Shown: positions 3,839 through 63,265 of the stretch, one piece after another
How the letters are laid out: each line of letters begins with the position of its first letter
Numbering within the stretch: the stretch's first letter is position 1
Assembly: GCA_045546155.1 (NCBI GenBank)
Contig: JAZQCG010000007.1
Coordinates: forward strand, 21,749-85,748
Length of the DNA: 64,000 nucleotides
Direction: 5' to 3'
From: Candidatus Enterousia sp.
GTDB taxonomy: Bacteria > Pseudomonadota > Alphaproteobacteria > Rs-D84
Position numbers and translations under genes: made by a program
Notes under the pieces: generated by a model
What the model was told of the DNA's origin: nothing
Seen by the model: the letters and a program-made list of their open reading frames with translations, nothing else
Databases searched by the model: none

Positions 3839-3854
3839 AGAAAAGGGGATAAAT

Positions 3855-4850: not shown

Positions 4851-4980
4851 GATAATAGTATTCGGGTGTCTTTCTGGTTGATTTACATGGATTTATTATC
4901 TAAGATTAACTCAATATTTAGCGCATCATTTTTTGTGGTGCGCTGTGACCATGTACGTGATAAAAGCAAAGGAATTCTAA

Positions 4981-26682: not shown

Positions 26683-27921
26683 TTAATTGCACACTACAAC
26701 ATATGGCGGTTTGGATAATTCTGTATTTATCCCTGTTTCGCCACAGTCCCGACAATTAAACCGTCGATTTTGGGAATACCCAGCCCCCAATGGCACACGC
26801 ACATCATTAATACCAGATTGACTTACATATTCGCGATTTGGAAAACCAAAAAACAACGCGCGCGTTGGGCCACTGCATTCATCGGTGTTGCCGTTATAGC
26901 ATCGTGGGTCATCAATTTTTGTCGCATCCGGAACACAGTGCGCAACACATGTTTCTTCATCAATTACCATTTTTTCGCAATCTGTACATGATGTTTCTGG
27001 GGCGCGTAATGTTGTGCCCGCTGCGCCGAACGATGTGTTGTATCGAATATGTTCGCATTTTTTTATGGTCTGGATATTCGTTGGGTCGCCAATGCATTCC
27101 CACTCTAACGTATTGTAATTCAGTTGCGCAACCATATTTTTTGGACAGCTTTTTTCTGGGAACGGACTGATGCATTCCCAAACGCTGTCCACCATAACGG
27201 CGGTTTGGTTGTTTGCGCATAATGGCTTGCGTGATTCATCAGGGATGCATTCCATCAGGTCGGAATCCCATACCATATCCCCACCACAATTTGTTTTAGT
27301 GTTATATCCAGTACACTGCCAACGTCCAAAACGATAAACTTTGACTGTGCCGACGGGGCATACAATGTCTTCGGTAATATTGATGGCAAATTCAGTCAAC
27401 GTATCTGGGATTTCATATTGTGTCAGGTATACCAGCTGGCCGGGGGATAATTCCATTTCAGCTATAATAGATTTTGGTACAATACGTCTCGTACTTGTTC
27501 CGCCAGACATAATCACATTGTCATTAAATATACCAAATGTTCCAGCATCGCTAAATTCAGATTCCAGTATTTCCATCATAGCATTATGTTGTGTTGCATC
27601 AATTGGCGCAGTTGCCGTAACGATATAGCTAAATGCAGGCTTTTTATTTTTAACAATTTCGCATTTGGTTATTGCCAGTCTGTTGTCCAGGCACACATAT
27701 TGGCTTTTTATATCATTTTGTTGCACGCATATATCTTCGAACGACGTGCCTTTGATTTGGGCGTTGTGAACCGCTGCAGCGCATTGCGCAATCATCCGCA
27801 GGTCTGATTTTTCAACCGCGTACTGTGTTTCATGTTCAGGGATTTTTTGGCTTGGGCTGTCTATTATATAGTACCCCGCCATAAACAGAGCCACCAAAAT
27901 CATAATAAAAATATTCATCAT
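26683..27921 (-). CDS. membrane-anchored Cys-rich protein with repeated C-x(n)-W/L-E-C-I modules
   Basis: The start is placed at MMNIFIMILVALF (GGGAGA RBS), because the longer ORF would overlap lptE. The C-terminal half has more than 25 Cys, with repeats such as VWDSDLMECIP, SVWECISP and LEWECIGDP. Confidence 0.6.
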   Translation of the reverse strand: MMNIFIMILVALFMAGYYIIDSPSQKIPEHETQYAVEKSDLRMIAQCAAAVHNAQIKGTSFEDICVQQNDIKSQYVCLDNRLAITKCEIVKNKKPAFSYIVTATAPIDATQHNAMMEILESEFSDAGTFGIFNDNVIMSGGTSTRRIVPKSIIAEMELSPGQLVYLTQYEIPDTLTEFAINITEDIVCPVGTVKVYRFGRWQCTGYNTKTNCGGDMVWDSDLMECIPDESRKPLCANNQTAVMVDSVWECISPFPEKSCPKNMVAQLNYNTLEWECIGDPTNIQTIKKCEHIRYNTSFGAAGTTLRAPETSCTDCEKMVIDEETCVAHCVPDATKIDDPRCYNGNTDECSGPTRALFFGFPNREYVSQSGINDVRVPLGAGYSQNRRFNCRDCGETGINTELSKPPYVVVCN

Positions 27922-27985
27922 TCTCCCTTGCGATTTATCAAAAGTGTAGCTAATATAAGTATAAACTGCAACAGGAAGTTTGTTT

Positions 27986-28468
27986 ATGAAAAAAATAATT
28001 TTATCATTATTGTTGTTGGCGGGCTGTGGATTTACACCAATGTATGTTGGGCGTGATTCTGATATATATGTGTCGCCTATTCGTGGAATTAATGGAATTG
28101 AATTGCGCAATGCGCTAAATGCTAAATTTGGCGGTGTACATGATGAAAAAGCAAAATATACACTGACTGTTAATTTAAGTGAACCTGTTACCCAGTACAA
28201 AGCACTGGAACAAACTGGCGATGCCACCTGGCAGGAAATATCAATGTCTGCAACATATAAACTAACAGATACCATATCCGGTACGGTCTTGGCCACTGGC
28301 ACAGAACGTGCATCTGAATCATATACATTTGTGCGATACCTGGTGGCGTCTAATGCGTCATACAATAACGCGGTCAAGAATTCTTTGACGGTGCTGGCGG
28401 ATAAAATTGGAACGCGTGCCATTACGGCCACACATACATTAAATACAAAAGCATCTGATAAAAAATAA
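27986..28468 (+). CDS. lptE: LPS-assembly lipoprotein LptE
   Basis: Lipobox LLLAGCGF, about 160 aa, directly upstream of holA as in many proteobacteria. Confidence 0.7.
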   Translation: MKKIILSLLLLAGCGFTPMYVGRDSDIYVSPIRGINGIELRNALNAKFGGVHDEKAKYTLTVNLSEPVTQYKALEQTGDATWQEISMSATYKLTDTISGTVLATGTERASESYTFVRYLVASNASYNNAVKNSLTVLADKIGTRAITATHTLNTKASDKK

Positions 28469-30228: not shown

Positions 30229-30975
30229 ATGGCAAAATCTGATCCATTAATGCGTGCTGGTCATCGCGAACGTCTGCGCAAAAAGTTCGAAGCAGGCAAG
30301 GCCAGTGATGACGACGAAATGGAATTGCTTTTGACATATATTATTCAGCGACGTGATGTTCGTGTCCCTGCCAGATTATTAATGAACAAATTTGGTTCTG
30401 CGTATAATACAATGCTTGCGAAAGCCGAAGATATTAAATCTGTACCCGGTGCAGGCGATGGTGTTGCGACGTTCTTCAAATTATTGCATAGCATTGTTGC
30501 AAAGGGTTATCGTGAACGCGACCGCAAAGAATCCCTTATTGTCAATTCAGCCCGAATGCATGAATATTGTCGCATGCATTTGGCAAACAAATCGACCGAA
30601 GAAATGCATGTTATGTATCTGGATAACTCAGGGCGACTGCTGCATTGTGAATTAAATGACATTGGAACGGTTAATCAATCAAATCTTTATCCTGATAAAA
30701 TACTAGCGCGTGCATTAATGACGGGCGCAACACGTATCGTGTTGTTTCATAATCATCCTGTTGGTGATTGTGCGGCCTCAGAAGCGGATATTAAAACAAC
30801 GCTGGATTTAGGTAAAATGTTATTACCGCACGGCATAATTATTCAAGATCATTTAATAATTGATGCGTTTGACATGATATACAGTATGCGTACCGCGCAT
30901 GCACTTGAGCCACTGGATATGCTGGCGGCACAAATGCGCCTAGAACAAATCACGAACGTCACAGACGTTGCTTAA
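30229..30975 (+). CDS. radC: RadC-family JAB-domain protein
   Basis: HRERLRKKF N-terminus and the JAMM motif LFHNHPVGDCAASEADI. Confidence 0.85.
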   Translation: MAKSDPLMRAGHRERLRKKFEAGKASDDDEMELLLTYIIQRRDVRVPARLLMNKFGSAYNTMLAKAEDIKSVPGAGDGVATFFKLLHSIVAKGYRERDRKESLIVNSARMHEYCRMHLANKSTEEMHVMYLDNSGRLLHCELNDIGTVNQSNLYPDKILARALMTGATRIVLFHNHPVGDCAASEADIKTTLDLGKMLLPHGIIIQDHLIIDAFDMIYSMRTAHALEPLDMLAAQMRLEQITNVTDVA

Positions 30976-31563
30976 TTTAGTTGCTGGACTATTTGCCAGT
31001 TTGTTATTTTCCAAATAGTATTCTGTTTTTGTGGCCACCGACGGTGTGTCCCATGTGTCTACAAACGGACGTGAAATAATTGTCGCGCCAAATGTTGGGG
31101 TAAAATGAAACTGAATTAATCGCAGGGCACAATCTGCCCCATGCGTTGTTCTGAATCCTTTTGGGGTAATATCAAGCATTGCGCCATTGTTGTTCAGTTC
31201 AATTTTATATTCATCGTAATCGTGCGCGTTACCGGTTGCAACATGCGTGCGCGTGATACGGTCCGATTGTCCATCATTGTTAATATCTCGATTAAATTCA
31301 GCAATGCTTTCAATGCCTGCGCCAAATTCATCCAGTGTGCCGCGTGTTATAGTATCTGGTGTTCCAAGGCCGTCTGTAAATTCGCCGGCTGGGGTTGTCT
31401 TTTTTGCTTGTACGCGTTGTGATATTGTTGGGCTGTCCATTGTGGTGGTTGTTCCTGAATTTTTAAAGTCACCACGGAACTTCATAAAAAACAAAGCGCA
31501 TGCCGATGCGAATATCAAAATCAATAAAACATTTGTTGTAATTCCACCACGTTGTGATTTCAT
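30940..31563 (-). CDS. signal-anchored hypothetical protein
   Basis: N-terminal TM NVLLILIFASACALFF and a DINNDGQSDRI Ca-binding-like loop. Last gene of a three-gene minus-strand operon. Confidence 0.5.
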   Translation of the reverse strand: MKSQRGGITTNVLLILIFASACALFFMKFRGDFKNSGTTTTMDSPTISQRVQAKKTTPAGEFTDGLGTPDTITRGTLDEFGAGIESIAEFNRDINNDGQSDRITRTHVATGNAHDYDEYKIELNNNGAMLDITPKGFRTTHGADCALRLIQFHFTPTFGATIISRPFVDTWDTPSVATKTEYYLENNKLANSPATKLSNVCDVRDLF

Positions 31564-31574
31564 TTTTACATCCT

Positions 31575-32606
31575 TTACATTTGTACAACTTGTCCCGGCT
31601 TCCAGCCTTCGATTTGTCGAATTGCGTTTGCTACTTTGTCCAGTTCTTCGTCGCTTAATTCGGATATGCGACGATTAATTGATAGGCCCGTTATTCTTTC
31701 CAGACTGCGCTGATATGCGACGGTGTTATTTTCAGATGGCGGGGCATAGCGACTAACTGCATTTGCAATCGTCAGGTTATTATAGCTTTTACCGCGCAAC
31801 AGTTTCTTTATCGCCTGCATACCCGTTTGTTCGTCTGGGAATACCGCGAATCCACCGGCTTCGCCAATTGCGCCGGCGCGACGTGAAAATTCGGTCATGC
31901 GTATATTGCCTGGATTCTTGTTGCGCCATGCGCGTGTGCCACCAACCTGTTTGTATTGTGTGCCGTCTGCTGCAACAAAAATAACATCTTTGCCAGATTG
32001 TATCGCACGCACAGGTGTCATATTTGGTGTGGCCACAGCCGCGGGCGCACTACTGATGCTTTGTGATTGCACGGGCGATGTCGTTGTTTCGATTGTGCCC
32101 GGTGTACCAGATGCCGCCAATGGCGCATCTGCATACGGTGTTTCAGCCATATTCAAATTGACCCCAGAATCATAAATATCAAATTCTTCATATAATTTGT
32201 ATTCGTCGTATTTTTCCATTTTATCTTTGCGCAGATCCAGCAACGCATTAATTTTTTCAAGTGGTATTGAAATTGTTTTGCATCCCTGACCGATTAGGTC
32301 GCCACCATATATCGCATTTACAACAGCCGGGACAATACATATTGTCCCCAAAATCAGTACAAGATTTTTTATATTATTTGTAATAGATGCCAATTGTGCG
32401 TTTTTCGACCCGCGTATCATTGCCCACGCCCAACCCGCCAACAAAATCCCGACAATAAACATTAAAATTGTCCAGGCATATTCAAAAAAAGTCTGAAAAC
32501 TGCGAACGACGCATCCGGGGTCTTCCATATAGATATTTACACTATCCGCACTCAGGTTATGAAAACCCGAATTATCCAACAGTCTAAAAATCGTTTCTAT
32601 ATCCAT
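31575..32606 (-). CDS. two-TM membrane protein with Ser/Thr/Pro linker and conserved-looking C-terminal domain (WRNKNPGNIR motif)
   Basis: Two hydrophobic helices in aa 45-110, a low-complexity linker, then GGTRAWRNKNPGNIR...GGFAVFPDEQTGMQA. Confidence 0.5.
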   Translation of the reverse strand: MDIETIFRLLDNSGFHNLSADSVNIYMEDPGCVVRSFQTFFEYAWTILMFIVGILLAGWAWAMIRGSKNAQLASITNNIKNLVLILGTICIVPAVVNAIYGGDLIGQGCKTISIPLEKINALLDLRKDKMEKYDEYKLYEEFDIYDSGVNLNMAETPYADAPLAASGTPGTIETTTSPVQSQSISSAPAAVATPNMTPVRAIQSGKDVIFVAADGTQYKQVGGTRAWRNKNPGNIRMTEFSRRAGAIGEAGGFAVFPDEQTGMQAIKKLLRGKSYNNLTIANAVSRYAPPSENNTVAYQRSLERITGLSINRRISELSDEELDKVANAIRQIEGWKPGQVVQM

Positions 32607-40443: not shown

Positions 40444-42024
40444 ATGACAAACGTACAAACAAAATTTCCACAAAGATCCTCGATTAACAAGGCAGAAAAC
40501 AGCATTTCTGAAACACGCCGTCCAGATGGTTGGGTAATTCATGAAACATTTGCCCAAGATGGAATGATTGCAACACAGATTATAGAAACGGGCACAGGTT
40601 GCAAATGGTTAATTCAATATGATGCCAGTGGCCATATAACATTCAAAGAGCCATTAAATAATTTTAAGCAAGAAGACATAACCTATAATAATGGACGTGT
40701 TGCATCTATCAAGCGACGAATTGGTCAAAAAGATACAATTACGCAGTACGATGATAAGGGAAACATTGTCTGTAATATAGCGCTTGAAGCAGGCGACGTT
40801 GTTAATTTCAATAACGGTTATGTACAATCGCTAACGCGATATACAGGAAGCAGCTTGCTAGAAATCGAATTTGACGAGAAAGGCCGCAAACGTTCATCTG
40901 CACAAAAGGTTAGACGTGATGGATTTTGGCTAACAACAGAAACAAAACAGTATTATACAAATGGCAAATTGCAATCCCTGATAACGTATGAACAAAGAAC
41001 CGAGCATACCTCTGGTTTTTCCGTTACTACTGGTGGCGGTTTTAGTTCTGTTTTAAATGACGTAAACAGCGGGGTGTCTTATATTGCGTCCATAGCACAA
41101 TATGATGAAGATGGCAAAGTTGTTATCAGCGCACAATTAAAGGAAACGGATGAGGTTAACTTTAACGGTGACAAGGTTGCGTGCATCACCAGACGTGTGA
41201 AAAAAGGCGATACATTGGAAACTGTATCCCAAACAACATATTATTCGTCTGGGAATTTATGTACGATAACAAATTACCAAGATGGCAAGGTGTTATCTTC
41301 TGTGACTTATGATGAACAGGGCAAACCACAAAGCAGCGCCCAGCAAGGTACAGAAAATTACCAAGATATATACCAGGCCGCACGGCAAACAAACCAAAAT
41401 GCTCAGAATATAAAGTCGTTTGCAAAGGCTTCTATGATGCCACAACAGGCGGCTAGCATTTTGGGTGTATCTTTGGGTGCGACCGAACAAGAAGTAAAGA
41501 CAGCATATCGCAAGCTGTGCAAAATCTGGCATCCAGATAGAAACCAAGGCAACGAAGAAGTGGCAAAACGCAAAATGCAACAGATTAACGAAGCGTACAG
41601 TGTGATGTTGCAATACATCAGAAATCGTGGCCAGCAATCGCAGCCTGGTTCGTCACAGCAACCACGCCCAGAAGCGCCACGCCAACCGCGTCCAGAACAT
41701 GTCAATCGTATGCAGCAGGCATGGGATAAACTGCAACAGGCTATTCGTGATTATGACTATGCGGTGGCAAGATTAAAAGCTGCCACTGCGGAAAAAGAAA
41801 GAATCAGAAACGAATATGCCCGAACCCCCGCCAGTGATCCTAAGAAGCAAGCATTGGCGCAACAATTAAGAAAAGCAGAGATGACTTGGTCTGCCTGTGT
41901 TAGAAACAAAGTCACCGCCCAGGCGTATAAGGAAAGATGCGAACGTGAATATAACATGTTGCGTATGCAAAAATACACCAAAAATTGCCAGCAAAAATGT
42001 TTTGAATATCAACGTGCCGCATAG
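40444..42024 (+). CDS. J-domain protein with N-terminal MORN-variant/YwqK-like repeats
   Basis: The J domain is ILGVSLGATEQEVKTAYRKLCKIWHPDRNQG...INEAYSVM (HPD present). The N-terminal 300 aa contain duplicated YYxNGxL / YDxxGK repeats. A Q/P-rich segment and coiled-coil tail follow. Confidence 0.7.
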   Translation: MTNVQTKFPQRSSINKAENSISETRRPDGWVIHETFAQDGMIATQIIETGTGCKWLIQYDASGHITFKEPLNNFKQEDITYNNGRVASIKRRIGQKDTITQYDDKGNIVCNIALEAGDVVNFNNGYVQSLTRYTGSSLLEIEFDEKGRKRSSAQKVRRDGFWLTTETKQYYTNGKLQSLITYEQRTEHTSGFSVTTGGGFSSVLNDVNSGVSYIASIAQYDEDGKVVISAQLKETDEVNFNGDKVACITRRVKKGDTLETVSQTTYYSSGNLCTITNYQDGKVLSSVTYDEQGKPQSSAQQGTENYQDIYQAARQTNQNAQNIKSFAKASMMPQQAASILGVSLGATEQEVKTAYRKLCKIWHPDRNQGNEEVAKRKMQQINEAYSVMLQYIRNRGQQSQPGSSQQPRPEAPRQPRPEHVNRMQQAWDKLQQAIRDYDYAVARLKAATAEKERIRNEYARTPASDPKKQALAQQLRKAEMTWSACVRNKVTAQAYKERCEREYNMLRMQKYTKNCQQKCFEYQRAA

Positions 42025-42926: not shown

Positions 42927-43835
42927 TTAATAGTTGTTTATAACAGCATTGTAATATTTACGATATGTCTGAAATGTTAAAAATCTTTTTATGTCTGATT
43001 TCCATGGTTTTACTACGCCGGCATAATGTAGCATCACAGGATGTTTTATGTCGCGATACGTGGTTATTGTCATCGTCTTTAAAAAGCTGTATCCGCCATC
43101 AACAATGATATTAAATTTACGTGACATAGGTTTTATACGATTGCGACATATTGTGTTCAACATATCTTGATCAGGAAAATTGGCTTGATTATTTTCTGCC
43201 CAATGTATCATTTGCGGATACTTGTTTTCTAAACGAAATTGTTCGATATTCATTACTAAAAATCCGCTGTTGATATATGTTTCGCTGTCAAAGCATCCTG
43301 CTAATAAATTATTGCCAATGTTAAATTCGTTGGCTTCACGCAAATCACGAACAAACAACGTGTCGACATCAGCATAAATAATACGTTTTACATTATTGGG
43401 TAACAGTTTTGGCAACATGCACCGCCACCATATAGCTTTTGACCATCGGCCACAATGTGCATTATCATAATCTGTATTTGGCTTTAAAAATATTATATTC
43501 CCATTAGAATAATGTTTCTTTATATACTTTAATATTTTAGTCTGTTCAGATTTATTTATATCTGTGACACAATAAACATCATACTTGCATCCTGGTGAAT
43601 TTTGAAGCAGCGAAGAAACAGCCGTCAAAAACAGTGGAATATAGGCTTTATTAAAACAAAAGGCTATATTTATCACAGGGCTATAAATTGTATTATCTGG
43701 TGTCATATTAAATTTTGGAAAGGTTGCCCACGAGACAAAGTTTTTTTTGGCCACTTTTGATGGGATAAAAATATCAACAATATGTAATAGTAATCGTTTA
43801 ATTGTTTTAAAATATATTACTGATAACTTTTCCAT
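42927..43835 (-). CDS. family 8 glycosyltransferase
   Basis: IYADVDTLF, INSGFLVMN, DQDMLN and LHYAGVVKPW motifs. Confidence 0.8.
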   Translation of the reverse strand: MEKLSVIYFKTIKRLLLHIVDIFIPSKVAKKNFVSWATFPKFNMTPDNTIYSPVINIAFCFNKAYIPLFLTAVSSLLQNSPGCKYDVYCVTDINKSEQTKILKYIKKHYSNGNIIFLKPNTDYDNAHCGRWSKAIWWRCMLPKLLPNNVKRIIYADVDTLFVRDLREANEFNIGNNLLAGCFDSETYINSGFLVMNIEQFRLENKYPQMIHWAENNQANFPDQDMLNTICRNRIKPMSRKFNIIVDGGYSFLKTMTITTYRDIKHPVMLHYAGVVKPWKSDIKRFLTFQTYRKYYNAVINNY

Positions 43836-43854
43836 AACGAATCCCTGGGTTAAA

Positions 43855-43885
43855 AAAAGACCACCAGTAAAAATGAGTGGCCAGG
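43855..43885 (-). terminator. intrinsic terminator (minus strand) just upstream of the GT8 start
   Basis: Minus strand: GGCCAC-12 nt-GTGGTC followed by T7. Confidence 0.5.
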
Positions 43886-44362
43886 GAGTTGATAAATCAG
43901 TATGTTAGTGATTCCGTTGCTTTTAGGTTACCCCTATTTTATAACAAACGGCCCCCCGACCAAACGATCAGGGATGCTATCGGTGTAAAAGCACCGAAAC
44001 ATCAATCTAACGATGCTTTCGCACCGAACATACTGGGTTTATCACAACCCAAGCCGGCCTTACCGGTTCATTTGAATATTATAATGAAGTAGGAATAAAA
44101 TCAAGTATACATTATTTGCCCCGACATCAGCGAAAATGGACGGTGTCTCCATCTTCGCGCCTTTGACGACCAATAACCAAACCTAGACGCAAAAACTCTA
44201 TTAACCATATCTGTTTTGCAGGTTTGCTAATTGTTCGTCCGCGTATTCGCCATGCGTGCCTGTGGGCGTTGCCCACAAAAACTGCGTTTTCTGCCGGCAC
44301 TCTGGCGCATCCGGTTGGGGTGCTTTTACAAAAATAAAAACCGACCCAAAAGGTCGGTTTTG

Positions 44363-44384
44363 AATTTTGGCAGCCCCAACTGGA
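44363..44384 (-). repeat. copy A of the tRNA-Glu 3' end (att-like), with a terminator copy
   Basis: aattttggcagccccaac(t)gga matches 47589-47610 with one mismatch. The adjacent hairpin aaaaccgacc..ggtcggtt is also duplicated. Confidence 0.8.
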
Positions 44385-44482
44385 CGACTTTCGAACTTTA
44401 CTGCTGCGCGACTATGACGAAATAGTCAGAAATATCAACGAACTTTCAGAATGGATTGAAAATAACAAGTGATAAGTCTTGC

Positions 44483-44836
44483 TTAGCTATATATCAGTAA
44501 GTGCAGCAAACTCATAAATATTTCCATCGCAACAGGGGCAAACAGATATGCCAGTGCAACAAAGTACTTTTTCATGAGGGCTTTATATATCCCAAAACAC
44601 ACAAATACCAATTGTGCAATTGTATATATTACCAACAAGACCACATAATATATAGTGCGTATTTCTAAGCCCATAAATTCGATATATTTACAACATTCAC
44701 CATCTAGTATATATGGGTATGGTGCCATAGTAAAAACATATCGTAATTCAGAGATTGGAACCAGTATTGCTATAAAAGATAAACATAATAGCAATACCTG
44801 TCCCCAAATACATAAAATTGATTTAGCTGTTTTCAT
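44483..44836 (-). CDS. 3-TM membrane protein, immunity candidate (paralog 1)
   Basis: Its ATG overlaps the TGA of the orphan toxin tip (TGATG). Architecture is TM, Cys loop (DGECCKY), TM, KKY, TM. Confidence 0.55.
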   Translation of the reverse strand: MKTAKSILCIWGQVLLLCLSFIAILVPISELRYVFTMAPYPYILDGECCKYIEFMGLEIRTIYYVVLLVIYTIAQLVFVCFGIYKALMKKYFVALAYLFAPVAMEIFMSLLHLLIYS

Positions 44837-44988
44837 CAATGGTATTTTACATTGACAATTAAATCACGTCCATTCTTTTCAAACCATTGTGTAAATTCAT
44901 CAATATGATGTGTTAAATCGATACAGCCTGCCGAACATGGAACCCAGCCGCCATGAATACTAAAATCATCACAACCGTATGTTTGGGT
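44836..44988 (-). pseudogene. orphan C-terminal toxin tip (Tlde1/DUF2778-like), no start codon
   Basis: Translates to TQTYGCDDFSIHGGWVPCSAGCIDLTHHIDEFTQWFEKNGRDLIVNVKYH, roughly half identical to the last 50 aa of the 46112..47233 product. It begins right after an in-frame TAA. Confidence 0.7.
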
Positions 44989-45002
44989 TTATTTTTGAAC
45001 AA

Positions 45003-45356
45003 CTAAAATTTTGCATAATGATATAACAAGGTACCAAGCAAAGAATCCGTCCAAGATATTATAATCGGACTTAACACAAGCCAGAAAGACACTTTATAGT
45101 TTTTCTTATACAAAAAATACAATGATACTGGAATAAAAAACAACAGCGTGGCACAAGAAGATACCAGATTTGTTAAATATACATCTGCACTACGCCATGC
45201 CCAGCCCATAGATTCACCGCCCCATGGACAATAATTAAACGGAAACGCATCACGACATTCTTTGATAAAAAATTCATAATAATCAGTAAGCAGTCCATAT
45301 AAAAGCAATATATTTATACCAAGACAAATTATCGTGCCACGTTTCCATTTTTGCAT
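45003..45356 (-). CDS. 3-TM membrane protein, immunity candidate (paralog 2)
   Basis: The internal ATG at 45356 gives a 117-aa protein with the same architecture as the other paralogs. The longer ORF would overlap paralog 3. Confidence 0.45.
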   Translation of the reverse strand: MQKWKRGTIICLGINILLLYGLLTDYYEFFIKECRDAFPFNYCPWGGESMGWAWRSADVYLTNLVSSCATLLFFIPVSLYFLYKKNYKVSFWLVLSPIIISWTDSLLGTLLYHYAKF

Positions 45357-45415
45357 ACATAACCCTTTTGCTAGTATTTTACATGTACAATCAGGTCGTT
45401 TCCAGTAATTATCAC

Positions 45416-45751
45416 CTATACCAAACCCAATATTAAATAATACAGTATGTTGCATATTGGGTATATCAATAATCCCAGCAATGGGATAAAAAATATTTTC
45501 TTTTTGTAAATTGGTGCAAGAATGTATCCCAACCACATTAGCAGACCCAAAATTATGAAAATGCACAACAAGTCATAGCGCGCCATGCAGACATCTGCCT
45601 TATGACCATCTAGATGCATGCATACATTCCACCATATATCTTCGTTTTTTGCAATTCGCCCGAAATAAGCCAAATCACTTAAAAAGAAGAAAAACAATCC
45701 CGCCAGGAATACGGAAATATAATAAAACAAAGAGTATTTTTTTTGTTCCAT
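45416..45751 (-). CDS. 3-TM membrane protein, immunity candidate (paralog 3)
   Basis: 111 aa: TM, loop with two Cys (NVCMHLDGHKADVCM), TM, YKKK, TM. Confidence 0.5.
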   Translation of the reverse strand: MEQKKYSLFYYISVFLAGLFFFFLSDLAYFGRIAKNEDIWWNVCMHLDGHKADVCMARYDLLCIFIILGLLMWLGYILAPIYKKKIFFIPLLGLLIYPICNILYYLILGLV

Positions 45752-45773
45752 GCCAAGCCTTATTTCTTTATGA

Positions 45774-46091
45774 TTAAATCATATAATTTATAGCTGCAAC
45801 AACAGCGGATAAAACGATATAACTTATAATCGCAACAATAAAAGCCAATAACAAAATACAACCCCATTTCCACTTATATGGTTTCCATGATAAACACATT
45901 AAAAACAGACCAAGCAAAAAGGTTGCGCTTATAATTGTAATATCAACATAACGCAGGCAGTGATATTCGCACAAACCGTAAAATAAAGTGTCCCATTTTG
46001 AAGAAGCCAACATGTTTGAATCAAAATAGAATACAAACATGATGACAAACGAAACGAATGCATATGTTGCTAATGTTTTTGTATTTTGCAT
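45774..46091 (-). CDS. 3-TM membrane protein, cognate immunity candidate (paralog 4)
   Basis: 105 aa, starting 20 nt after the toxin stop. TM, Cys loop (GLCEYHCLRY), TM, KPYKWKW, TM. Confidence 0.55.
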   Translation of the reverse strand: MQNTKTLATYAFVSFVIMFVFYFDSNMLASSKWDTLFYGLCEYHCLRYVDITIISATFLLGLFLMCLSWKPYKWKWGCILLLAFIVAIISYIVLSAVVAAINYMI

Positions 46092-46111
46092 ATCAGGACA
46101 CTTTTTTATAT

Positions 46112-47233
46112 CTAATACTCCACCTTGATAATTAAATCATTCCCTATATAATCAAATAACGCAACAAAATTGTCAATATTTGATGTTAAGTCGATACATC
46201 CAGCCGAGCCAGGAACCCAACCGCCGTGAATATAAAATCCACCTCTACCATAAGTATTTGTCTGTTGCGATGATTCTAGTTTTACCCTTGATGCACCCCA
46301 TGAGTATAAGCTTCCGGGCCACGTTCCTGCATTAGCAATACCTGCAATTATCCCGTATGGTGTTATATACTGCAATTTTTCCTGCCTTGCAACGTATGTG
46401 CCTTCGGGGATTGGTCCTGTGTCTTTCAGGTTTTGGTATTCGGGGCTTCTGTATCCATCTTTGCCCGATACTGCATCCCACGACATAATTGGTTTGTCAT
46501 TTTCATACAGCGTAAATTTCTTGCCGTCAAATACCGCATATTGCCCCGGCTTTACATTCACCGGTTTTTCAAAGGTTGGTTTATTTATTTCATTGTCGGG
46601 TTGTGATTCTGATTTCTTTTCTGGCTTTTGGCCTTTATAAACCTTGCTGCCTATTTTCTTGCCAGCCTCATTCAGCGTTGTTTCTTCAACCCAACAGCGA
46701 CAGTTTGGATGAACGGGACAAACTGGTATATCTTCTTTGGTTTCATAGACCGTCCCATCGTTCCCCGAACATTCATCGCATGTATTTTCGCCATGTTCGC
46801 TGTGCCATATCCATATCTTGGGCTTTATTTCAAACTCTGGAATATTCAAAGCATAAGTTTCCAGACTTCGTTTTGAAACATGACCACCCGGCATTAAAAC
46901 TTTGACCGGTATCGGCGTGCCAGGAACAACATATTCTTCGATATTAAATTCAAAACCAATTGTTTCAAAATAATCGCCGTATGTGTCCAGGACATCTGCT
47001 TCTGCCTCGCTTTTATCAGACTCGAACTCCGTTTCTATTTCATGCTGGGCTTTGTAGAACTGTTCCAATGTCATATCATATTCTGGGCGCATCATACGAC
47101 CTGTGGCATCAAACGCCACTGTTCCGGGATACAGGATGTTCATGTACCTTGTTGCACGTTTATAAGTTTCGCTGTTTTTATCACCGTATTCGGGCGATGA
47201 AATCAGTTCTTGTAAAAATTTTGGTGTTTGCAT
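46112..47233 (-). CDS. MuF/SPP1-gp7-domain polymorphic toxin with Tlde1 (DUF2778, L,D-transpeptidase-fold)-like C-terminal domain
   Basis: ATG at 47233 after GGGGGA. The MuF signature is IWIWHSEHGENTCDECSGNDGTVY..PVCPVHPNCRCW. The C-terminus has SGKDGYRSPEYQNLKDTGPIPEGTY...GGFYIHGGWVPGSAGCIDL. Confidence 0.7.
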   Translation of the reverse strand: MQTPKFLQELISSPEYGDKNSETYKRATRYMNILYPGTVAFDATGRMMRPEYDMTLEQFYKAQHEIETEFESDKSEAEADVLDTYGDYFETIGFEFNIEEYVVPGTPIPVKVLMPGGHVSKRSLETYALNIPEFEIKPKIWIWHSEHGENTCDECSGNDGTVYETKEDIPVCPVHPNCRCWVEETTLNEAGKKIGSKVYKGQKPEKKSESQPDNEINKPTFEKPVNVKPGQYAVFDGKKFTLYENDKPIMSWDAVSGKDGYRSPEYQNLKDTGPIPEGTYVARQEKLQYITPYGIIAGIANAGTWPGSLYSWGASRVKLESSQQTNTYGRGGFYIHGGWVPGSAGCIDLTSNIDNFVALFDYIGNDLIIKVEY

Positions 47234-47246
47234 AATTTTCCCCCAT

Positions 47247-47318
47247 AAAAAACACCCGCGGTTGCGGGCAATAAAAAAAGACGACCTGTGTCGTCCGCTG
47301 AGTGCAAACATTATACCA
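47247..47318 (-). promoter_or_regulatory. extended -10 promoter followed by two tandem intrinsic terminators in the leader
   Basis: Minus strand: TGG-TATAAT (47310-47318), GACGAC-ACAG-GTCGTC plus T7 (47273-47295), CCCGC-AACC-GCGGG plus TGT6 (47247-47268), then the RBS. Confidence 0.6.
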
Positions 47319-47410
47319 TAAAACACGCAAAAAATCAATTCTATATTTCGAACCGCCCGAGCCCCTTGGATTTTTAATAAAAAATCCGTCCAAACGGACG
47401 GAAAATCAGA

Positions 47411-47431
47411 TTTGGCAGCCCCAACCGGATT
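47411..47431 (-). repeat. copy B of the tRNA-Glu 3' end (att-like)
   Basis: tttggcagccccaaccggatt is identical to 47592-47612. On the minus strand it is followed by its own hairpin plus T-run (TCCGTCCGTTTGGACGGA TTTTTT). Confidence 0.8.
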
Positions 47432-47593
47432 GTCTGATTCCCATGTTCGTTTTCACTCCATGGGCCCCTTTCGCTACGTAAGGCTCAAACTTCGTTGGCA
47501 CTTGTTTTCGCCAACTGACGCTCCGAACCTGCGGCTCTCATCTCGGTGGAAACGGGCAAAATTAAAACCGACCACAAGGGTCGGTTGTAATTT

Positions 47594-47669
47594 TGGCAGC
47601 CCCAACCGGATTCGAACCGGTGTTCTCGCCTTGAAAGGGCGGTGTCCTAGGCCTCTAGACGATGGGGCC
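47594..47669 (-). tRNA. tRNA-Glu (anticodon TTC)
   Basis: 76 nt: GGCCCCATCGTCTAGAGGCCTAGGACACCGCCCTTTCAAGGCGAGAACACCGGTTCGAATCCGGTTGGGGCTGCCA. Very close in layout to the E. coli tRNA-Glu. Confidence 0.9.
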
Positions 47670-47733
47670 AAAACTGCCGTGTTCATATGAACGCCGGCAA
47701 ATTATACATGTATTTTTGCCCCATGTCAAGTTT

Positions 47734-48168
47734 TTATTCCGCCGCTGCGTCGCCCTGGGGGTTATTTGTTGCCAATGGGTCTGTTTCAACCATTGTAAAT
47801 ACTATTTCTGTGCCGTCGCCCGATGCTAATACCAGTGTCCCATCGCGTAATTCGTATGTTTCGACCGTTGGCATAAATTGAAAATATTCTGTTTCTGCTG
47901 CCATCGCGTTTGGCTCGCCCATCATCATTGTTGATGCGAATCCGTCAAATTTAATGTTGTTGCCATCGGCGGTATATGCGCCGTTATAAAGGTTTACAAC
48001 CTTGCCGTTAACGCGCATTTCATCTGGCGCAAAAGACAATACGATTGTGGCATCTGGCTGATTTGCGACAAAGTGCTTGCCTTTTAGTGTGTCTGGATTT
48101 TGTGTGTTCATGTCGCATGCTGTCAAAGCCATTGCGCATGCCGCTGCGGCTAATAATCTGAATTTCAT
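47734..48168 (-). CDS. META-domain (HslJ-like) lipoprotein
   Basis: Lipobox ALTACD, and NLYNGAYTADGNNIKFDGFASTMMMG...ETEYFQ is the META-domain pattern. Confidence 0.7.
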   Translation of the reverse strand: MKFRLLAAAACAMALTACDMNTQNPDTLKGKHFVANQPDATIVLSFAPDEMRVNGKVVNLYNGAYTADGNNIKFDGFASTMMMGEPNAMAAETEYFQFMPTVETYELRDGTLVLASGDGTEIVFTMVETDPLATNNPQGDAAAE

Positions 48169-48282
48169 ATAGTTTCTCCTTTTTTTGCGTGCCGATTTTT
48201 ATTATATTTTATCATGGTTGTATTTGTAAATATTATTTTATTCCAAGAAAATCGGCCCCCTGTAAAGGGGCCGAACGTATTT

Positions 48283-48831
48283 TTAGTAATTTGTCACACG
48301 CTTTTTTCCAGTAGTAATTTCTTGGGCACGAACATTTGCTTCTGTAATCAGGGCTTGTTTGATAAATTTACCCCACAGACACCATCCAATCATCAGTGTG
48401 ACTGTGCACATAATGACAAATGTAGATGACATTAACAAAGAAGTCATATAATACTCAATTTCGTAACCGCTTCCCAATATCGCTTCGTGTCGATATTCAT
48501 CGGCGAGTGCAAACAATATTCCGGATAAAAACGCATACATCAGTGTATAGGCCAGTGTCCACTTCAAACGTTTCTTATACATAGTAAGCCAATGAACGGG
48601 TTTAGAGCCAGGGTGATATTTTGCGATTTGTGATACAAAAATAAACAGGGATATTATATAAATTAAAATTCCTCGCCATTCAAAAGCTAGGATCTCACCT
48701 GTGCTTACTTCTGCCAATATCTTTGCAAGAAAGTAAAGCCATGGAATTAATGTTATGATAATTGTAGTTCTAATAGCTCTTGCTTTAAAAGACAAATTAA
48801 ATGTAGTTGGTTGTGTTGTTTTATTGTCCAT
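48283..48831 (-). CDS. hypothetical 4-5 TM membrane protein
   Basis: 182 aa and hydrophobic. The terminator CGGCCCC..GGGGCCG lies downstream. Confidence 0.5.
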   Translation of the reverse strand: MDNKTTQPTTFNLSFKARAIRTTIIITLIPWLYFLAKILAEVSTGEILAFEWRGILIYIISLFIFVSQIAKYHPGSKPVHWLTMYKKRLKWTLAYTLMYAFLSGILFALADEYRHEAILGSGYEIEYYMTSLLMSSTFVIMCTVTLMIGWCLWGKFIKQALITEANVRAQEITTGKKRVTNY

Positions 48832-48922
48832 AAATTTCTCCTTTTTACCTGGATATGGGCATTGTAGGCAAAAGATATAGCGAAAAACAAAAAAAACACC
48901 GTCAAATGACGGTGCGAATAGC

Positions 48923-48999
48923 TGGCGGGATTGACGGGGCTCGAACCCGCGACCTTCTGCGTGACAGGCAGACGCTCTAACCAGCTGAGCTACAACCCC
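48923..48999 (-). tRNA. tRNA-Asp (anticodon GTC)
   Basis: 77 nt: GGGGTTGTAGCTCAGCTGGTTAGAGCGTCTGCCTGTCACGCAGAAGGTCGCGGGTTCGAGCCCCGTCAATCCCGCCA. Confidence 0.9.
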
Positions 49000-49086
49000 T
49001 TAAAGCGTTACGTATGATATATTGTCAGTGGAATAAATGCAAGTACTTTTTTTCAAAAAAATAAAAATCCCCAACCTGGGGATTGT

Positions 49087-49344
49087 TTATAGTTGATTTT
49101 GGTCATTGTTACATTGAATATCATTGTTTTTCTTAACAAAGATATTTTTTATCGCCGCAAAGAACTTTTTACGTCTTTCCGCACGCTTTACAGAATGCTC
49201 CCATGCCTTTTCCAGCATTTCATTTTCTTTTTCTTCGGCGCGACGCAGTTTTTCTTCGCCGTATTCTTTTAATTCGCGTTCCAGTCTTTCGTTTGCGGGT
49301 TCGCGATATGTTGAATCTGTGATTGTGATTTTATCTTCGTCCAT
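49087..49344 (-). CDS. hypothetical charged coiled-coil protein (85 aa)
   Basis: Lies downstream of the virB11-like gene and is followed by a terminator. Confidence 0.4.
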   Translation of the reverse strand: MDEDKITITDSTYREPANERLERELKEYGEEKLRRAEEKENEMLEKAWEHSVKRAERRKKFFAAIKNIFVKKNNDIQCNNDQNQL

Positions 49345-49365
49345 AATGATACTCCTTAATATTTA

Positions 49366-50325
49366 CTAAACTACTTCTGTTACGGCGCGCAACGCCCCGT
49401 CACGTGATAATTGAACAACACGGATTTTCTTTTTCATTTCCGTGATTAAATCTGTACGGTCATATGCCGGCTGGGTGTGCAGAATACGGTCTGCAAATGC
49501 AGCGTATGCGGCCTCGGCACTTTCTGCGTGAATTGTTGTATAGAAATGATCATGGCCCGTCCCCAGCATTTCCCACAGTACCGCTGCATTATCGGTTGAA
49601 ATTTCGCCACCGATAATAACGTCTGGGGTCATACGAACGACCAAGTCCAACAAGCGGGCATAGTTCATGTCGTTTGTCTGTTCGGTACGTGATAATACAA
49701 AATGAACGCGATTCGCCTGTGGGACGCGGATTTCACGTGCGTCTTCGACGGTAATAACGCGACTGTTGTTATCAATCAGGGTCAGCATATGGTTCAAAAA
49801 TGTTGTTTTCCCAGTTGCGGTTGCGCCACTGATTAAAATAGGGCTGCCATCATTGATTGCGGTCATTAATCTTTCGTATGGATCGTCTGGGCGAACGTTT
49901 TCGCGTGGTTTTACCTTTAGCAGTGGTCGTCCACGTTCCAAATGATAATTTTCAAAACTGGTTTCGTGCGCGCCGCCGCCACGAATATTCATCGCGACAC
50001 CGCCGGTCACGTCGCGTTCGTCATATTGGACGTTCGGGCCTGCGATTGCGGTAAAACGATGGTTGCCCGGCAATGTTGCGTACACAACAGGCATCCCGTG
50101 AACGGGGTCGAACGGGCGTTCGTAAATATTTGCAACCGTATGAATCAAGTCAACCAAATACTGCTTAGACAATACTTCGGCCTGGTACGATACCCATGGC
50201 ACACGTGCCCCGTGCAGGCGCATCCATACCTCGCCAGCGTGATTGATTGCAATTTCTTCTACAAACGATGGTTTGTAGAATTCTTCCAATGGTTTTAATA
50301 AAGATTCCAGTACGACATTTGACAT
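49366..50325 (-). CDS. virB11: VirB11/TrbB-type type IV secretion ATPase
   Basis: Walker A GATATGKTTFLN, Asp box VEDAREI, Walker B PDVIIGGEI, His box GHDHFYTTIHAES. The start is uncertain (ATG 50325 or TTG 50364). Confidence 0.8.
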   Translation of the reverse strand: MSNVVLESLLKPLEEFYKPSFVEEIAINHAGEVWMRLHGARVPWVSYQAEVLSKQYLVDLIHTVANIYERPFDPVHGMPVVYATLPGNHRFTAIAGPNVQYDERDVTGGVAMNIRGGGAHETSFENYHLERGRPLLKVKPRENVRPDDPYERLMTAINDGSPILISGATATGKTTFLNHMLTLIDNNSRVITVEDAREIRVPQANRVHFVLSRTEQTNDMNYARLLDLVVRMTPDVIIGGEISTDNAAVLWEMLGTGHDHFYTTIHAESAEAAYAAFADRILHTQPAYDRTDLITEMKKKIRVVQLSRDGALRAVTEVV

Positions 50326-50407
50326 GTTTAAGTATATTTTATCATAAATCGTGACTTGAATCAAAAAGGTTTATTTGTTAAAATTAAAAAAAAGAGAGAA
50401 AAAGACC

Positions 50408-61549: not shown

Positions 61550-63265
61550 ATGGCAAATTTTATTAAAACACAAAACTCATTTGCCCATGGCGCTGTTGCA
61601 CCTGAATTTTTTGCACACGATGATATTAATGGCGTGTCCAGACTTGAAAATATGGATGTTTTGCCGGGTGGTGGATTAACGCGCCGTCGCGGTCTGGTGC
61701 ATGTTGCAGCACTTTCAACTAATGCGCGTTTAGTTCCATTTTCTGTATCTGAAACGGAAAATTATTTACTGGCGATAACGCCGGGGCATGTAATTGTTTA
61801 TCTGGGAACAACGGTAAAGGCTGATTTATTCGCGCCATGGACTTCTGATGATTTGTCGCGTCTGCAATACGCCCAGCGTTTTGATACGATTATATTTGTG
61901 CATCCTGATTATCAGCCCCAGATTTTACAGAAAACAAAAAATGGTTTCGAGCTTGTCGATTTTATCTTTGCGCGTAATGACACAGATATGTCGATGAATA
62001 TCCCGTTTATGCGATTTGAAGACAGCAATGATATAAAAATATCTGTTACAACCAGTGATCGTGGCAATAACTATGCTAAGTTTACCACAAATACAGATTT
62101 CTGGTCGCCGGAATATGTCGGAACGCGCTTTTTATTATCGGATAAACAGTGGGTAATTGACGAATTCATTAATTCGACCCAGGTCATCGCATACATCAAT
62201 GGCACATACAGTGTGCCAAGCAACCCTGTATCAGATTGGTATGAAGCCGCATTTAGCAATGTGCGTGGCTGGCCATGCAGTATCACATTTCACCAAGACA
62301 GACTTGTCTTTGGTGGTGCGCGTTCATATCCAGCTGGGGTTTGGATGTCATGCGTTGGGCAACATAAAAACTTTAATGTGGGAACAGGTCTAGATGACGA
62401 AGCGATTTTCATAACCTTGCTTTCCCAGCAACGCCAACAAATCTGTACCGTGGTCAGTGGCGATAATCTGCAAATTTTGACATCTGATGGCGAATGGGCG
62501 ATTTCCAGTAAACCTTTGACCCCGTCGATGGTCGATATTAAACAACATACATCTGTTGGTTGTTGCGCAACACGATATTTACCACCGCAAAAGATAGAAG
62601 GTGCAACCGTATTCGTGTCTAAAACAATGCGTGATATTCGCGAACTGTCACTGGACGATTTGGGGCAAAATTATAACGCAACAGATTTGTGTGCGTTTGC
62701 AAAACATTTGATGACGGGGCCAATTGATATGGCGTATAACGATGCAACAAAACAATTGTTTGTTGTTCAATCAGACGGCAATATGGCGGTTTTAAATCAA
62801 AACAGCGCATTGGGAATATCCGCCTGGGCAGAATACAAAACATATGGTCAATTTATGTCTGTGGCGGTTGTTGATGGCATGACCTATGTCGTAACAAAGC
62901 GCGACACAGTATATAATATCGAATGTTTTTCAGATTCCGCGATGACAGATGCAGATTTATATGATTTCGCATTTTGTGCAGAATCTCTGCCGTTTCGGGT
63001 GTCGCATCATAATGTGTCACAGCTGCGAATACGAAAATTGTCTGTTCGTCTTTTAAATACCAAATCAGTCTTTGTTAATGGGGTGCGTGCGCCATTGCCT
63101 AATGATATTTATTCAGACAATCATCCCGGCTTTTCAGGGGATATTTCTGTGAATTTATTAGGCCAGATGAAAACATGCCTAGCACCGTATTGGACAATAC
63201 ATGGCAACGAACCACAACCAATCACAATTTTATCGGTATCTGTTTCCGGCGGATACAGTATTTAA
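61550..63265 (+). CDS. podovirus tail tubular protein B-like candidate
   Basis: 571 aa. The N-terminus QNSFAHGAVAPEFFAHDDINGVSRLENMDVLPGGGLTRRRG and the gene order support the call. Confidence 0.5.
   Translation: MANFIKTQNSFAHGAVAPEFFAHDDINGVSRLENMDVLPGGGLTRRRGLVHVAALSTNARLVPFSVSETENYLLAITPGHVIVYLGTTVKADLFAPWTSDDLSRLQYAQRFDTIIFVHPDYQPQILQKTKNGFELVDFIFARNDTDMSMNIPFMRFEDSNDIKISVTTSDRGNNYAKFTTNTDFWSPEYVGTRFLLSDKQWVIDEFINSTQVIAYINGTYSVPSNPVSDWYEAAFSNVRGWPCSITFHQDRLVFGGARSYPAGVWMSCVGQHKNFNVGTGLDDEAIFITLLSQQRQQICTVVSGDNLQILTSDGEWAISSKPLTPSMVDIKQHTSVGCCATRYLPPQKIEGATVFVSKTMRDIRELSLDDLGQNYNATDLCAFAKHLMTGPIDMAYNDATKQLFVVQSDGNMAVLNQNSALGISAWAEYKTYGQFMSVAVVDGMTYVVTKRDTVYNIECFSDSAMTDADLYDFAFCAESLPFRVSHHNVSQLRIRKLSVRLLNTKSVFVNGVRAPLPNDIYSDNHPGFSGDISVNLLGQMKTCLAPYWTIHGNEPQPITILSVSVSGGYSI

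Follow-up and report, generated by a model that had tools for sequence, protein, structure and literature searches.

The locus described here lies at positions 44483-47233 of a 64,000-nt stretch of contig JAZQCG010000007.1 (Candidatus Enterousia sp.; the whole stretch is referred to as the window), and consists of an open reading frame (ORF) for a putative toxin of 373 amino acids (aa), followed by four small ORFs, here named imm1 to imm4, and by remnants of further toxin genes. All of the features that an earlier, sequence-only reading had observed in this region were recovered at their positions. Every element of the islet lies on the minus strand, where the order from 47669 to 44346 is tRNA-Glu, the tRNA 3' end repeated (copy 2), a promoter-like element, two terminator-like hairpins, the 373-aa ORF, the four small ORFs and the tRNA 3' end once more (copy 3). 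The islet starts immediately 3' of a tRNA-Glu(UUC) gene (47594..47669; ARAGORN, with an Rfam tRNA match of 56 bits), the 3' end of which forms, together with a terminator-like hairpin (47566-47586), the first copy of a direct repeat found by repeat search (47572..47610). A spacer of approximately 140 nt (47430..47571), delimited by alignment of equivalent segments, separates it from copy 2 (47391..47429; repeat and hairpin scans), which sits approximately 160 bp past the tRNA gene and is again followed by a terminator-like hairpin. Copy 3 (44346..44384, with a hairpin at 44337-44361) forms the right border of the islet, and the copy inside tRNA-Glu is 79% identical to it, as the reference, over 39 nt. 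Between copy 2 and the toxin gene there is a promoter-like element, TTGATT-17-TGgTATAAT with an extended -10 (47310..47338; 10 of 12 positions in a consensus scan, with TG), and then, ahead of the Shine-Dalgarno sequence and ATG, two tandem terminator-like elements found by scanning, each a hairpin with a T-run (47253..47296). An Rfam scan of positions 43000-49500 returned only two tRNAs and weak sub-threshold matches.

The toxin gene (46112..47233), the translation of which starts MQTPKFLQ, is followed by imm1 (45774..46091, 105 aa, TMa family), the candidate cognate immunity gene for the resident toxin tip, and then by the orphan immunity candidates imm2 (45416..45751, 111 aa, TMb family) and imm3 (45003..45356, 117 aa, ATG at 45356, TMc family) and by imm4 (44483..44836, 117 aa, TMd family), all of which encode proteins with three transmembrane (TM) segments. 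Interspersed among these genes are pieces of toxin tips. The largest, at 44836..44988, comprises the last 50 codons of a Tlde1 tip of the type here called delta, lacks a start codon, and was identified by translation and alignment. A second, found by repeat search and alignment, consists of 14 codons and a stop between imm2 and imm3 (45371..45415, reading VIITGNDLIVHVKY), and a possible third, YDLIIKK with its stop codon, overlaps the end of imm1 (45760..45783) and is weak, being recognised from a 17-nt repeat at 88% and an alignment.

Alignments divide the toxin into an N-terminal domain (aa 1-203, 46625..47233), a linker (aa 204-217, 46583..46624) at which sequence similarity breaks, and a C-terminal tip (aa 218-373, 46115..46582). 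An AlphaFold2 model built with 65 homologues had a mean predicted local distance difference test (pLDDT) score of 82.5 and showed two domains joined by this linker, which is disordered (pLDDT below 50). The ORF contains the motifs W.WHSE..C.EC..HPNCRCW, GPIPEGTY and IHGGWVPGSAGCIDL, and a Tlde1-type L,D-transpeptidase fold had been proposed for its C-terminal part; profile and structure searches bore this out. In Pfam scans the tip (aa 238-365) scored 37.4 bits for Tlde1_dom (cut-off 30.1; aa 253-365) and 32.4 bits for YkuD (cut-off 23.4). The top Foldseek matches in the PDB were structures of Salmonella Tlde1a (7uo8, 7uo3 and 7uma; E 1.4e-6 to 5e-6, probability 1.00, target TM-score 0.58-0.64, 24-25% identity), with LdtMt2 and YkuD ranking next. 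A phmmer search of the PDB likewise matched Tlde1a with RGGFYIH...S.GC aligned, the tip sequence RGGFYIHGGWVPGSAGC standing opposite RGGFYIHDSTKGYSHGC of Tlde1a. The active-site motif (46196..46228) is H336-x6-S343-x-G345-C346 with R330 upstream, and these residues align with R115, H121, S128, G130 and C131 of Tlde1a, the counterparts being treated as functionally important in that protein (PMC9638812); the spacing is thus the H-x6-S-x-G-C of Tlde1a H121/S128/C131, and the H-x7-S-x-G-C originally read from the sequence was a miscount. Among the 65 homologues R330, H336, G345 and C346 never vary, and conservation of S343 reaches 90% or more. From profiles and model together, the tip has a Tlde1/YkuD fold with an intact R-H-x6-S-x-G-C active site, and a chance origin can be excluded because Pfam scores are above cut-off, the structural match agrees, and the arrangement recurs in 52 loci.

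These loci were obtained by a genome scan, and all come from metagenome-assembled genomes labelled Candidatus Enterousia, Alphaproteobacteria, Proteobacteria or 'bacterium', most of them from animal guts; several genomes carry two toxin loci. A homologue search with the toxin returned 411 proteins, all from uncultured Alphaproteobacteria and nearly all with a precomputed Tlde1 match (PF10908, DUF2778). Enterousia belongs to the order Rs-D84, with genomes of 0.75-1.0 Mb that lack the TCA (tricarboxylic acid) cycle and respiratory chains (PMC12306168). Across the loci, N-termini of approximately 205 residues that are 85-95% identical to that of the window protein carry quite different tips, namely Tlde1, PF00959 lysozymes of three types and PF05838 GH108, with the break at the junction motif KGQKPE. 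By family, all of the tip types found on this domain target peptidoglycan. The N-terminal domain in the window is nearer to that of some lysozyme-tipped proteins (95%) than to that of several Tlde1-tipped ones, and because relatedness of the N-terminal domain does not follow tip class, the tips have evidently been exchanged, in line with the earlier suggestion that the toxin is diversified. Exchange has two nested points, whole tip classes being swapped at the KGQKPE linker and Tlde1 subtypes at a conserved stretch within that domain. A housekeeping L,D-transpeptidase that serves the wall of its own cell together with membrane partners would share the genuine YkuD-fold match, and yet this reading is scarcely credible: the tip swaps with lysozymes on the same N-terminus, orphan cassettes are present, no signal peptide was recognised by eye in the toxin, and the nearest structure is the toxin Tlde1a rather than any of the housekeeping Ldt enzymes.

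The N-terminal domain had been described as a MuF domain, of which only a core can be upheld. The MuF/SPP1-gp7-like core (aa 134-190, 46664..46834) was detected with Pfam, TIGRFAM, PHROG and BFVD, and its residues C152, C155, H175, N177 and C180 (CxxC...HPNCxC) are invariant. Matches to the full domain are partial: Pfam Phage_Mu_F scored 26.4 bits, under the cut-off of 29.6, and covered only profile positions 60-111 of 112, TIGR01641 scored 23 bits (cut-off 39.7), PHROG head-morphogenesis and minor-head families matched only aa 135-200 (E 7e-10 to 6e-7), and structural matches to head-morphogenesis proteins in BFVD were local, spanning 43-64 columns. Residues 1-133 have no family match and are unrelated to phage MuF proteins. 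The MuF signal in the N-terminal domain is real and partial, restricted to a Zn-motif core of approximately 55 aa. When modelled alone, the N-terminal domain reached an AlphaFold2 pLDDT of 82.7 with a mostly helical N-terminus, and Foldseek found no significant neighbour for it in the PDB (best E 0.33), such that neither a colicin-type nor a solved phage fold could be assigned.

An exhaustive search with aa 1-205 returned 169 representatives, approximately two dozen of which match over most of the domain and the others only over the CxxC...HPNCxC core. Among the distant core-sharing proteins (n=99), Phage_Mu_F occurs in 71, and the recurring families are Phage_lysozyme (14), SAA-like (13), Peptidase_M23 (12), GH108 (7), PG_binding_3 (5), PG_binding_1 (3), Peptidase_M15_3 (2) and Pesticin (1). 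The genomic contexts of three distant short-core proteins from other taxa (L063-L068; loci are cited by such numbers throughout) are not phage head modules. Because of the families found on the 99 distant proteins and these non-phage contexts, the link between the short MuF core and wall-degrading domains may be general. Of the three proteins, one is fused to Peptidase_M23, one has approximately 400 aa of no known family, and one is 264 aa long with the core at its C-terminus; the protein with the 400-aa extension is followed by eight same-strand genes of no known function, which could be an immunity-like array.

Two further proteins touch on the same core. A 343-aa membrane protein encoded in the window at 31575-32606(-) has a C-terminal GGTRAWRNKNPGN domain. 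Some toxin arrays contain a 201-aa protein whose N-terminal part shares approximately 46% identity with this domain. This array protein ends in a MuF core that scores above the Pfam cut-off, at 36 bits, and the genes downstream of the two proteins are related, with 33% identity (window 30940-31563(-); the counterpart stretch is L015:8268-9351). By its domain composition, the 201-aa protein represents a second kind of MuF-core fusion in the Enterousia lineage.

As had been noted, each of the four small ORFs encodes three hydrophobic segments, with a pair of Cys residues in loop 1 and a patch of K/R residues that lies between TM2 and TM3. Their description as four paralogs holds within pairs: profile comparison with hhalign relates imm1 to imm2 (93.7%, E 1.8e-7) and imm3 to imm4 (91.4%, E 9e-7). 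A single family of all four was considered and rejected, hhalign detecting no similarity between the imm1/imm2 pair and the imm3/imm4 pair. Homologues of imm1 formed just 10 clusters, none of them below 57% identity, and imm1 looks lineage-restricted within the sensitivity of the word-index search used.

Across loci, the gene touching the 3' end of the toxin gene is set by the type of tip. Tlde1 tips ending GNDLIIKVEY are adjacent to the imm1 family (TMa) in all five loci with this ending, those ending FEFVGKDLIVEVKY to the imm2 family (TMb; directly after the tip in L020 and L021), those ending LESTGKDL..VKY to the imm3 family (TMc; directly after in L018, L035, L036 and L008), and those ending EKNGHDLIINVKYH to the imm4 family (TMd; L004, L013, L016 and L017, with the same TGATG overlap as in the window). 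The lysozyme tips are accompanied by a 111-aa lipoprotein (LysA), a convergent secreted protein of approximately 140 aa (LysB) or a convergent lipoprotein of approximately 326 aa (LysC), and the GH108 tips by a secreted protein of 144, 131 or approximately 140 aa; Pfam scans of the immunity candidates for these other tip classes gave nothing useful. In a permutation test on coarse clusters the purity of the pairing was 0.68, against a maximum of 0.48 in 10,000 shuffles, the single-linkage tip clustering at 62% identity having fused all Tlde1 subtypes, which were told apart by alignment. Thirteen of 14 Tlde1 loci obey the C-terminal subtype rule. Identity over aa 289-373 is 79% between tips with a shared immunity family and 58% between tips with different families, and the regions upstream differ much less between these two groups. 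At least four Tlde1 subtypes can be distinguished, differing in the C-terminal helix and in the stretch that aligns with the capping region. All partners inspected have transmembrane segments, a lipobox or a signal-like N-terminus, which fits toxins acting in the periplasm. This covariation of tip type and adjacent gene family suggests that the downstream ORFs behave as immunity genes, as first supposed.

In their size (105-117 aa) and their three TM segments the imm proteins are similar to class I holins, and endolysins typically carry lysozyme, GH108 or L,D-peptidase domains, with small Tlde1-domain proteins also occurring in phages, so that the islet could be viewed as the lysis cassette of a decayed prophage with the tip as endolysin and the 3-TM proteins as holins. 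This is very improbable. Lysozyme and GH108 tips pair with lipoproteins or secreted proteins rather than membrane proteins, four different holins in a row with tip remnants between them would be senseless for lysis, the enzyme is fused to a conserved 200-aa carrier, there are no adjacent phage genes, and the imm proteins have hydrophobic C-termini without the charged holin tail and no PHROG match. A holin-endolysin identity was accordingly rejected on the hydrophobic imm C-termini and on the variation of the partner gene with tip type.

The orphan tip at 44836..44988 reads TQTYGCDDFSIHGGWVPCSAGCIDLTHHIDEFTQWFEKNGRDLIVNVKYH followed by a stop codon, and retains 55% identity to the resident tip over 60 aa, in agreement with the earlier estimate of about one half; it is nearer to the delta-type tip of L013 (73%), and its Tlde1_dom match has an E-value of 0.012. 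Its TGA overlaps the ATG of imm4 (TGATG), the position that delta-type tips occupy before imm4 homologues elsewhere. Because it matches the tip type that directly precedes imm4 homologues at other loci, it can be identified as a displaced cassette, and the cassette displacement put forward from the sequence alone is well founded in this respect. The 14-codon remnant before imm3 resembles the ends of gamma-type tips, for example the L018 tip end LESTGKDLIVHVKY. Whole orphan lysozyme, GH108 and Tlde1 tips with partner genes occur at other loci; L004 and L008 have a Tlde1 toxin, an imm gene, a lysozyme tip and a lipoprotein in that order, and L042 has a multi-cassette array.

The position next to a tRNA gene is also widely shared: in 36 of 53 loci a tRNA gene for His, Glu, Lys, Ser or Pro lies on the same strand upstream of the toxin start by no more than 1.5 kb, at distances of 116-1198 bp. 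Many loci have a second copy of the tRNA 3' end 125-180 bp past the tRNA. The spacer between the two copies (approximately 130-160 nt) is conserved at tRNA-His, tRNA-Lys, tRNA-Glu and some tRNA-Ser loci, with only the last approximately 18 nt specific to the tRNA (15 places aligned); it is seen in the window and in L012, L013, L030, L034, L039, L042, L044 and L059, and has no Rfam match. By its recurrence it may be the att arm or the scar of a family of integrative elements, and these scars of approximately 160 bp stand between the tRNA and the toxin promoter, not around the islet. In L042 a tyrosine integrase gene (4157-5305(-); Phage_integrase, E 4.8e-25, with an Arm-DNA-binding domain) lies approximately 700 bp from the toxin, and Lys, Lys and His tRNA 3'-end fragments, each with a hairpin, lie between the two (L042:5450-5870). 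This upstream region was checked for a hidden tRNA or tmRNA, and contained no intact one, only the tRNA 3'-end fragments, with no Rfam match in L042:5200-6100. A PHROG scan of 124 flanking proteins gave integrase and terminase matches among the best 25 of 147 matched families, and is no proof that portal or capsid genes are missing.

The leader of the toxin gene is shared as well. In 46 aligned loci (L011-L062) it consists of TTGAnn-17-TGnTATAAT, two hairpins each with a T-run, a Shine-Dalgarno sequence and the toxin start, and five of the nine consensus hairpin pairs show compensatory changes; the leader in the window folds at -23.1 kcal/mol (z = -2.0). This arrangement suggests promoter-proximal termination that needs read-through, by an attenuator or by antitermination, and such a leader may control toxin expression.

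The most probable explanation, and one that we consider likely, is that the locus is a polymorphic peptidoglycan toxin/immunity islet situated 3' of tRNA-Glu, with one cognate immunity gene, three orphan immunity genes left as earlier cassettes were displaced, and at least two tip remnants. A constant N-terminus, exchangeable tips, adjacent partner genes and orphan cassettes, the general features of polymorphic toxins, are all present. The toxin would comprise a lineage-specific N-terminal carrier with a MuF-type Zn-motif core, a flexible linker and an exchangeable tip, the last being predicted to act as a Tlde1-like L,D-carboxy/transpeptidase that corrupts peptidoglycan stem peptides in the periplasm of the target cell. 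The imm1 product would be the cognate immunity protein, residing in the inner membrane with its Cys-containing loop predicted to face the periplasm. Genes imm2, imm3 and imm4 would have remained after the displacement of earlier tip and immunity cassettes by recombination in the conserved 3' part of the tip gene, a process that could have left the 14-codon and 50-codon remnants before imm3 and imm4, and their retention may guard the cell against neighbours with matching tip subtypes. Expression of the toxin would be gated by read-through of the two leader terminators.

Several observations weigh against this explanation. No export signal or secretion system was identified, and the mechanism is incomplete so long as a toxin that acts in the periplasm has no exit from its producer. 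Scans of imm1-imm4 with Pfam, NCBIfam and PHROG gave no match, and the four proteins do not resemble Tldi1 of Salmonella, which is soluble and periplasmic. The C-terminal subtype rule has one exception, L033. The window islet contains no integrase, and because only the window and L049 have a downstream tRNA-end repeat past the array, integrase-type mobility of the islet is not established.

The question of delivery admits several readings, of which the first starts from the MuF core. MuF-fused toxins have been proposed to be packaged in capsids (PMC3482391, PMC5576092), and by analogy the core could dock the toxin in a phage-like particle encoded elsewhere, by a prophage, a gene transfer agent or the helper phage of a satellite, to be expressed through late antitermination and ejected into the periplasm along with DNA. 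The core matches in Pfam, TIGRFAM and PHROG, the Phage_Mu_F signal on most of the distant proteins, and the promoter and two terminator-like hairpins kept in 46 loci are all consistent with such a particle, as is a ParB-methylase, DUF5681 and large-terminase module, or remnants of it, at most 6 kb from the toxin in L035, L045, L047, L053 and L055, which belong to a divergent clade of loci. In L035 this module (2647-5697(-); ParB-N6/N4 methylase, DUF5681, Terminase_6C) is oriented divergently to the toxin gene, and in L045 and L053 it has degenerated. The terminase has numerous relatives, many on very long contigs (0.8-1.2 Mb), and a serine recombinase is present in two of the three terminase contexts examined (L069/L070 and L071), with no portal or capsid gene seen within 10 kb. 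However, neither the window nor the flanks of close relatives contain the terminase module, no portal, capsid or tail gene occurs in the annotated contexts or in the window ORFs scanned, and only approximately 55 aa of MuF are kept next to the 133 N-terminal residues that phage MuF proteins do not share. An IMG/VR scan with N-domain patterns gave 224 pattern matches and no relative, a tblastn search of the N-terminal domain against 50,697 phage records (INPHARED) gave no match, and the genomes themselves are smaller than 1 Mb (PMC12306168). Delivery by a particle is rather unlikely. The related claim that the toxin had been stranded from a phage head module was not upheld, as phage-free, mostly tRNA-linked islets are the norm for the family, and on these comparisons the locus is not a stranded phage relic.

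That every tip type would act in the periplasm, making passage across the inner membrane unnecessary, directs attention to bacteriocins of the colicin or pesticin type, in which the N-terminal domain would bind an outer-membrane receptor and drive periplasmic import after release by lysis or leakage. The architecture is comparable, with no signal peptide, a carrier of approximately 200 aa, a flexible linker, a wall enzyme and an envelope immunity gene; a Pesticin-type lysozyme domain occurs on one distant MuF-core relative; and the absence of any need for a large machine suits a genome of less than 1 Mb. We nevertheless hold this reading to be unlikely, given that the model of the N-terminal domain matched no solved structure, not even the uptake domains of colicins and pesticin, that no lysis gene, TonB/Tol box or glycine-rich disordered N-terminus was recognised by eye in the islet, and that the N-terminus is predicted to be mostly helical.

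A full-length gene for a VirB11-like ATPase lies approximately 2 kb from the islet (49366..50364(-); TIGR02788, 147 bits, E 4.5e-43), which together with the envelope location of the immunity candidates brings into view an effector that a type IV secretion system (T4SS) would deliver on cell contact, analogous to the wall-degrading X-Tfe effectors with lipoprotein immunities of Xanthomonadales. The ATPase, however, scores under the equivalog cut-off (250 bits), the window ORFs scanned yielded no further VirB/VirD4 gene, and toxin loci are unlinked to T4SS gene clusters in the contexts examined. The conserved part of the toxin is moreover N-terminal, whereas all T4SS signals known to us, including the XVIPCD domain, are C-terminal, and the reading is improbable.

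A more speculative proposal, which we put forward tentatively and consider unlikely to be correct, is that the short MuF core marks a phage-derived and phage-independent trafficking route for polymorphic toxins that degrade peptidoglycan, or packaging in trans into the particles of a domesticated terminase-bearing element, the tRNA-linked islets of these genome-reduced gut bacteria serving, once switched on by antitermination at the double-terminator leader, as a means of kin discrimination or a gatekeeper of DNA transfer by particles. Were this so, recipients with matching membrane immunity would survive particle entry and others would be lysed, and fusions of the core with M23, M15, lysozyme, GH108 and SAA-like domains outside phage contexts in other bacteria would constitute a widespread hidden class.

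The remaining window ORFs scanned are ordinary chromosomal genes or have no family match, and include glycosyltransferases, DNA ligase, LpxI and the VirB11-like ATPase. Converging on imm4, and beginning within the third tRNA-end repeat, there is a 31-codon frame tail (QLDDFRTLLLRDYDEIVRNINELSEWIENNK and a stop codon, at approximately 44387-44482(+)), possibly what is left, at the 3' end, of a gene that the insertion cut short. At 43871-43961(-), just upstream of a GT8 glycosyltransferase gene, Rfam gives a weak match to sRNA-Xcc1 (37 bits against a gathering score of 53, E 8e-4), which is probably due to chance. Beside two glycosyltransferase genes, a 526-aa protein (40444-42024(+)) combines MORN-type repeats, a DnaJ J-domain and a Q/P-rich tail in an unusual architecture, and three large ORFs of 1208, 582 and 571 aa (20530-24156(+), 26683-28431(-) and 61550-63265(+)) have no Pfam or NCBIfam match.

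With described MuF polymorphic toxins (PMC5576092, PMC3482391) the locus shares an N-terminal MuF/SPP1 gp7 motif, a variable C-terminal toxin domain and an adjacent immunity gene. However, those toxins have a full MuF domain and lie in prophage head modules beside portal and terminase genes, whereas here there is the short core within an otherwise lineage-specific N-terminal domain, and the loci are phage-free, mostly tRNA-linked and equipped with orphan cassette arrays. The tips described for MuF toxins in the papers searched are also mostly cytoplasmic in action, comprising nucleases, metallopeptidases, ADP-ribosyltransferases and RelA-like domains, in contrast to the uniformly peptidoglycan-directed tips found here, and neither peptidoglycan nor lysozyme came up in a term search of PMC5576092. 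Reuse of the MuF core outside phages with wall-degrading tips alone would make the question of MuF-toxin delivery testable.

The Tlde1/Tldi1 pairs of Salmonella's type VI secretion system (T6SS) (PMC9638812) have the same YkuD-derived fold, R...H-x6-S-x-G-C motif and predicted stem-peptide target. Tlde1 is there a stand-alone effector of 174 aa, whereas here the domain is a fused tip, and Tldi1 is a soluble periplasmic protein, whereas the candidates here are 3-TM membrane proteins, a type of immunity not described for Tlde1; neither the scanned ORFs of the window nor the annotated contexts contained a T6SS family. The four Tlde1 subtypes and four membrane families could serve as a natural specificity map linking L,D-transpeptidase-fold toxins to small 3-TM candidate inhibitors.

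Rhs, CdiA and MafB systems resemble the locus in their constant N-terminus, exchangeable tip and immunity gene, start-less remnants with retained immunity genes, and recombination upstream of the variable part, and differ in that the toxin here is much smaller (approximately 375 aa), has no repeats or known secretion domain, and has two nested exchange points. Pesticin and colicin M share the lack of a signal peptide, the build of carrier, linker and wall enzyme, and the envelope immunity protein; the carrier here, by contrast, has no detectable sequence or structural similarity to theirs, no lysis gene or Ton/Tol box was recognised, and the loci are chromosomal and tRNA-linked rather than plasmid-borne. 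Genomic islands linked to tRNA genes likewise lie 3' of the tRNA with direct repeats of the tRNA 3' end, and the tyrosine integrase beside L042 fits this picture, unlike the window islet with no integrase and the majority of loci with no downstream repeat. That a genome of less than 1 Mb should keep up to two loci and arrays of spare immunity genes points to strong within-lineage competition in the animal gut. MuF toxins, Tlde1 effectors and orphan cassette arrays are already known as kinds. Judged against them, what appears to be new is the truncated MuF carrier outside phages, the restriction of the tips to peptidoglycan and the candidate 3-TM immunity proteins for Tlde1, together with the tRNA linkage, the conserved double-terminator leader and the occurrence in genomes of less than 1 Mb.

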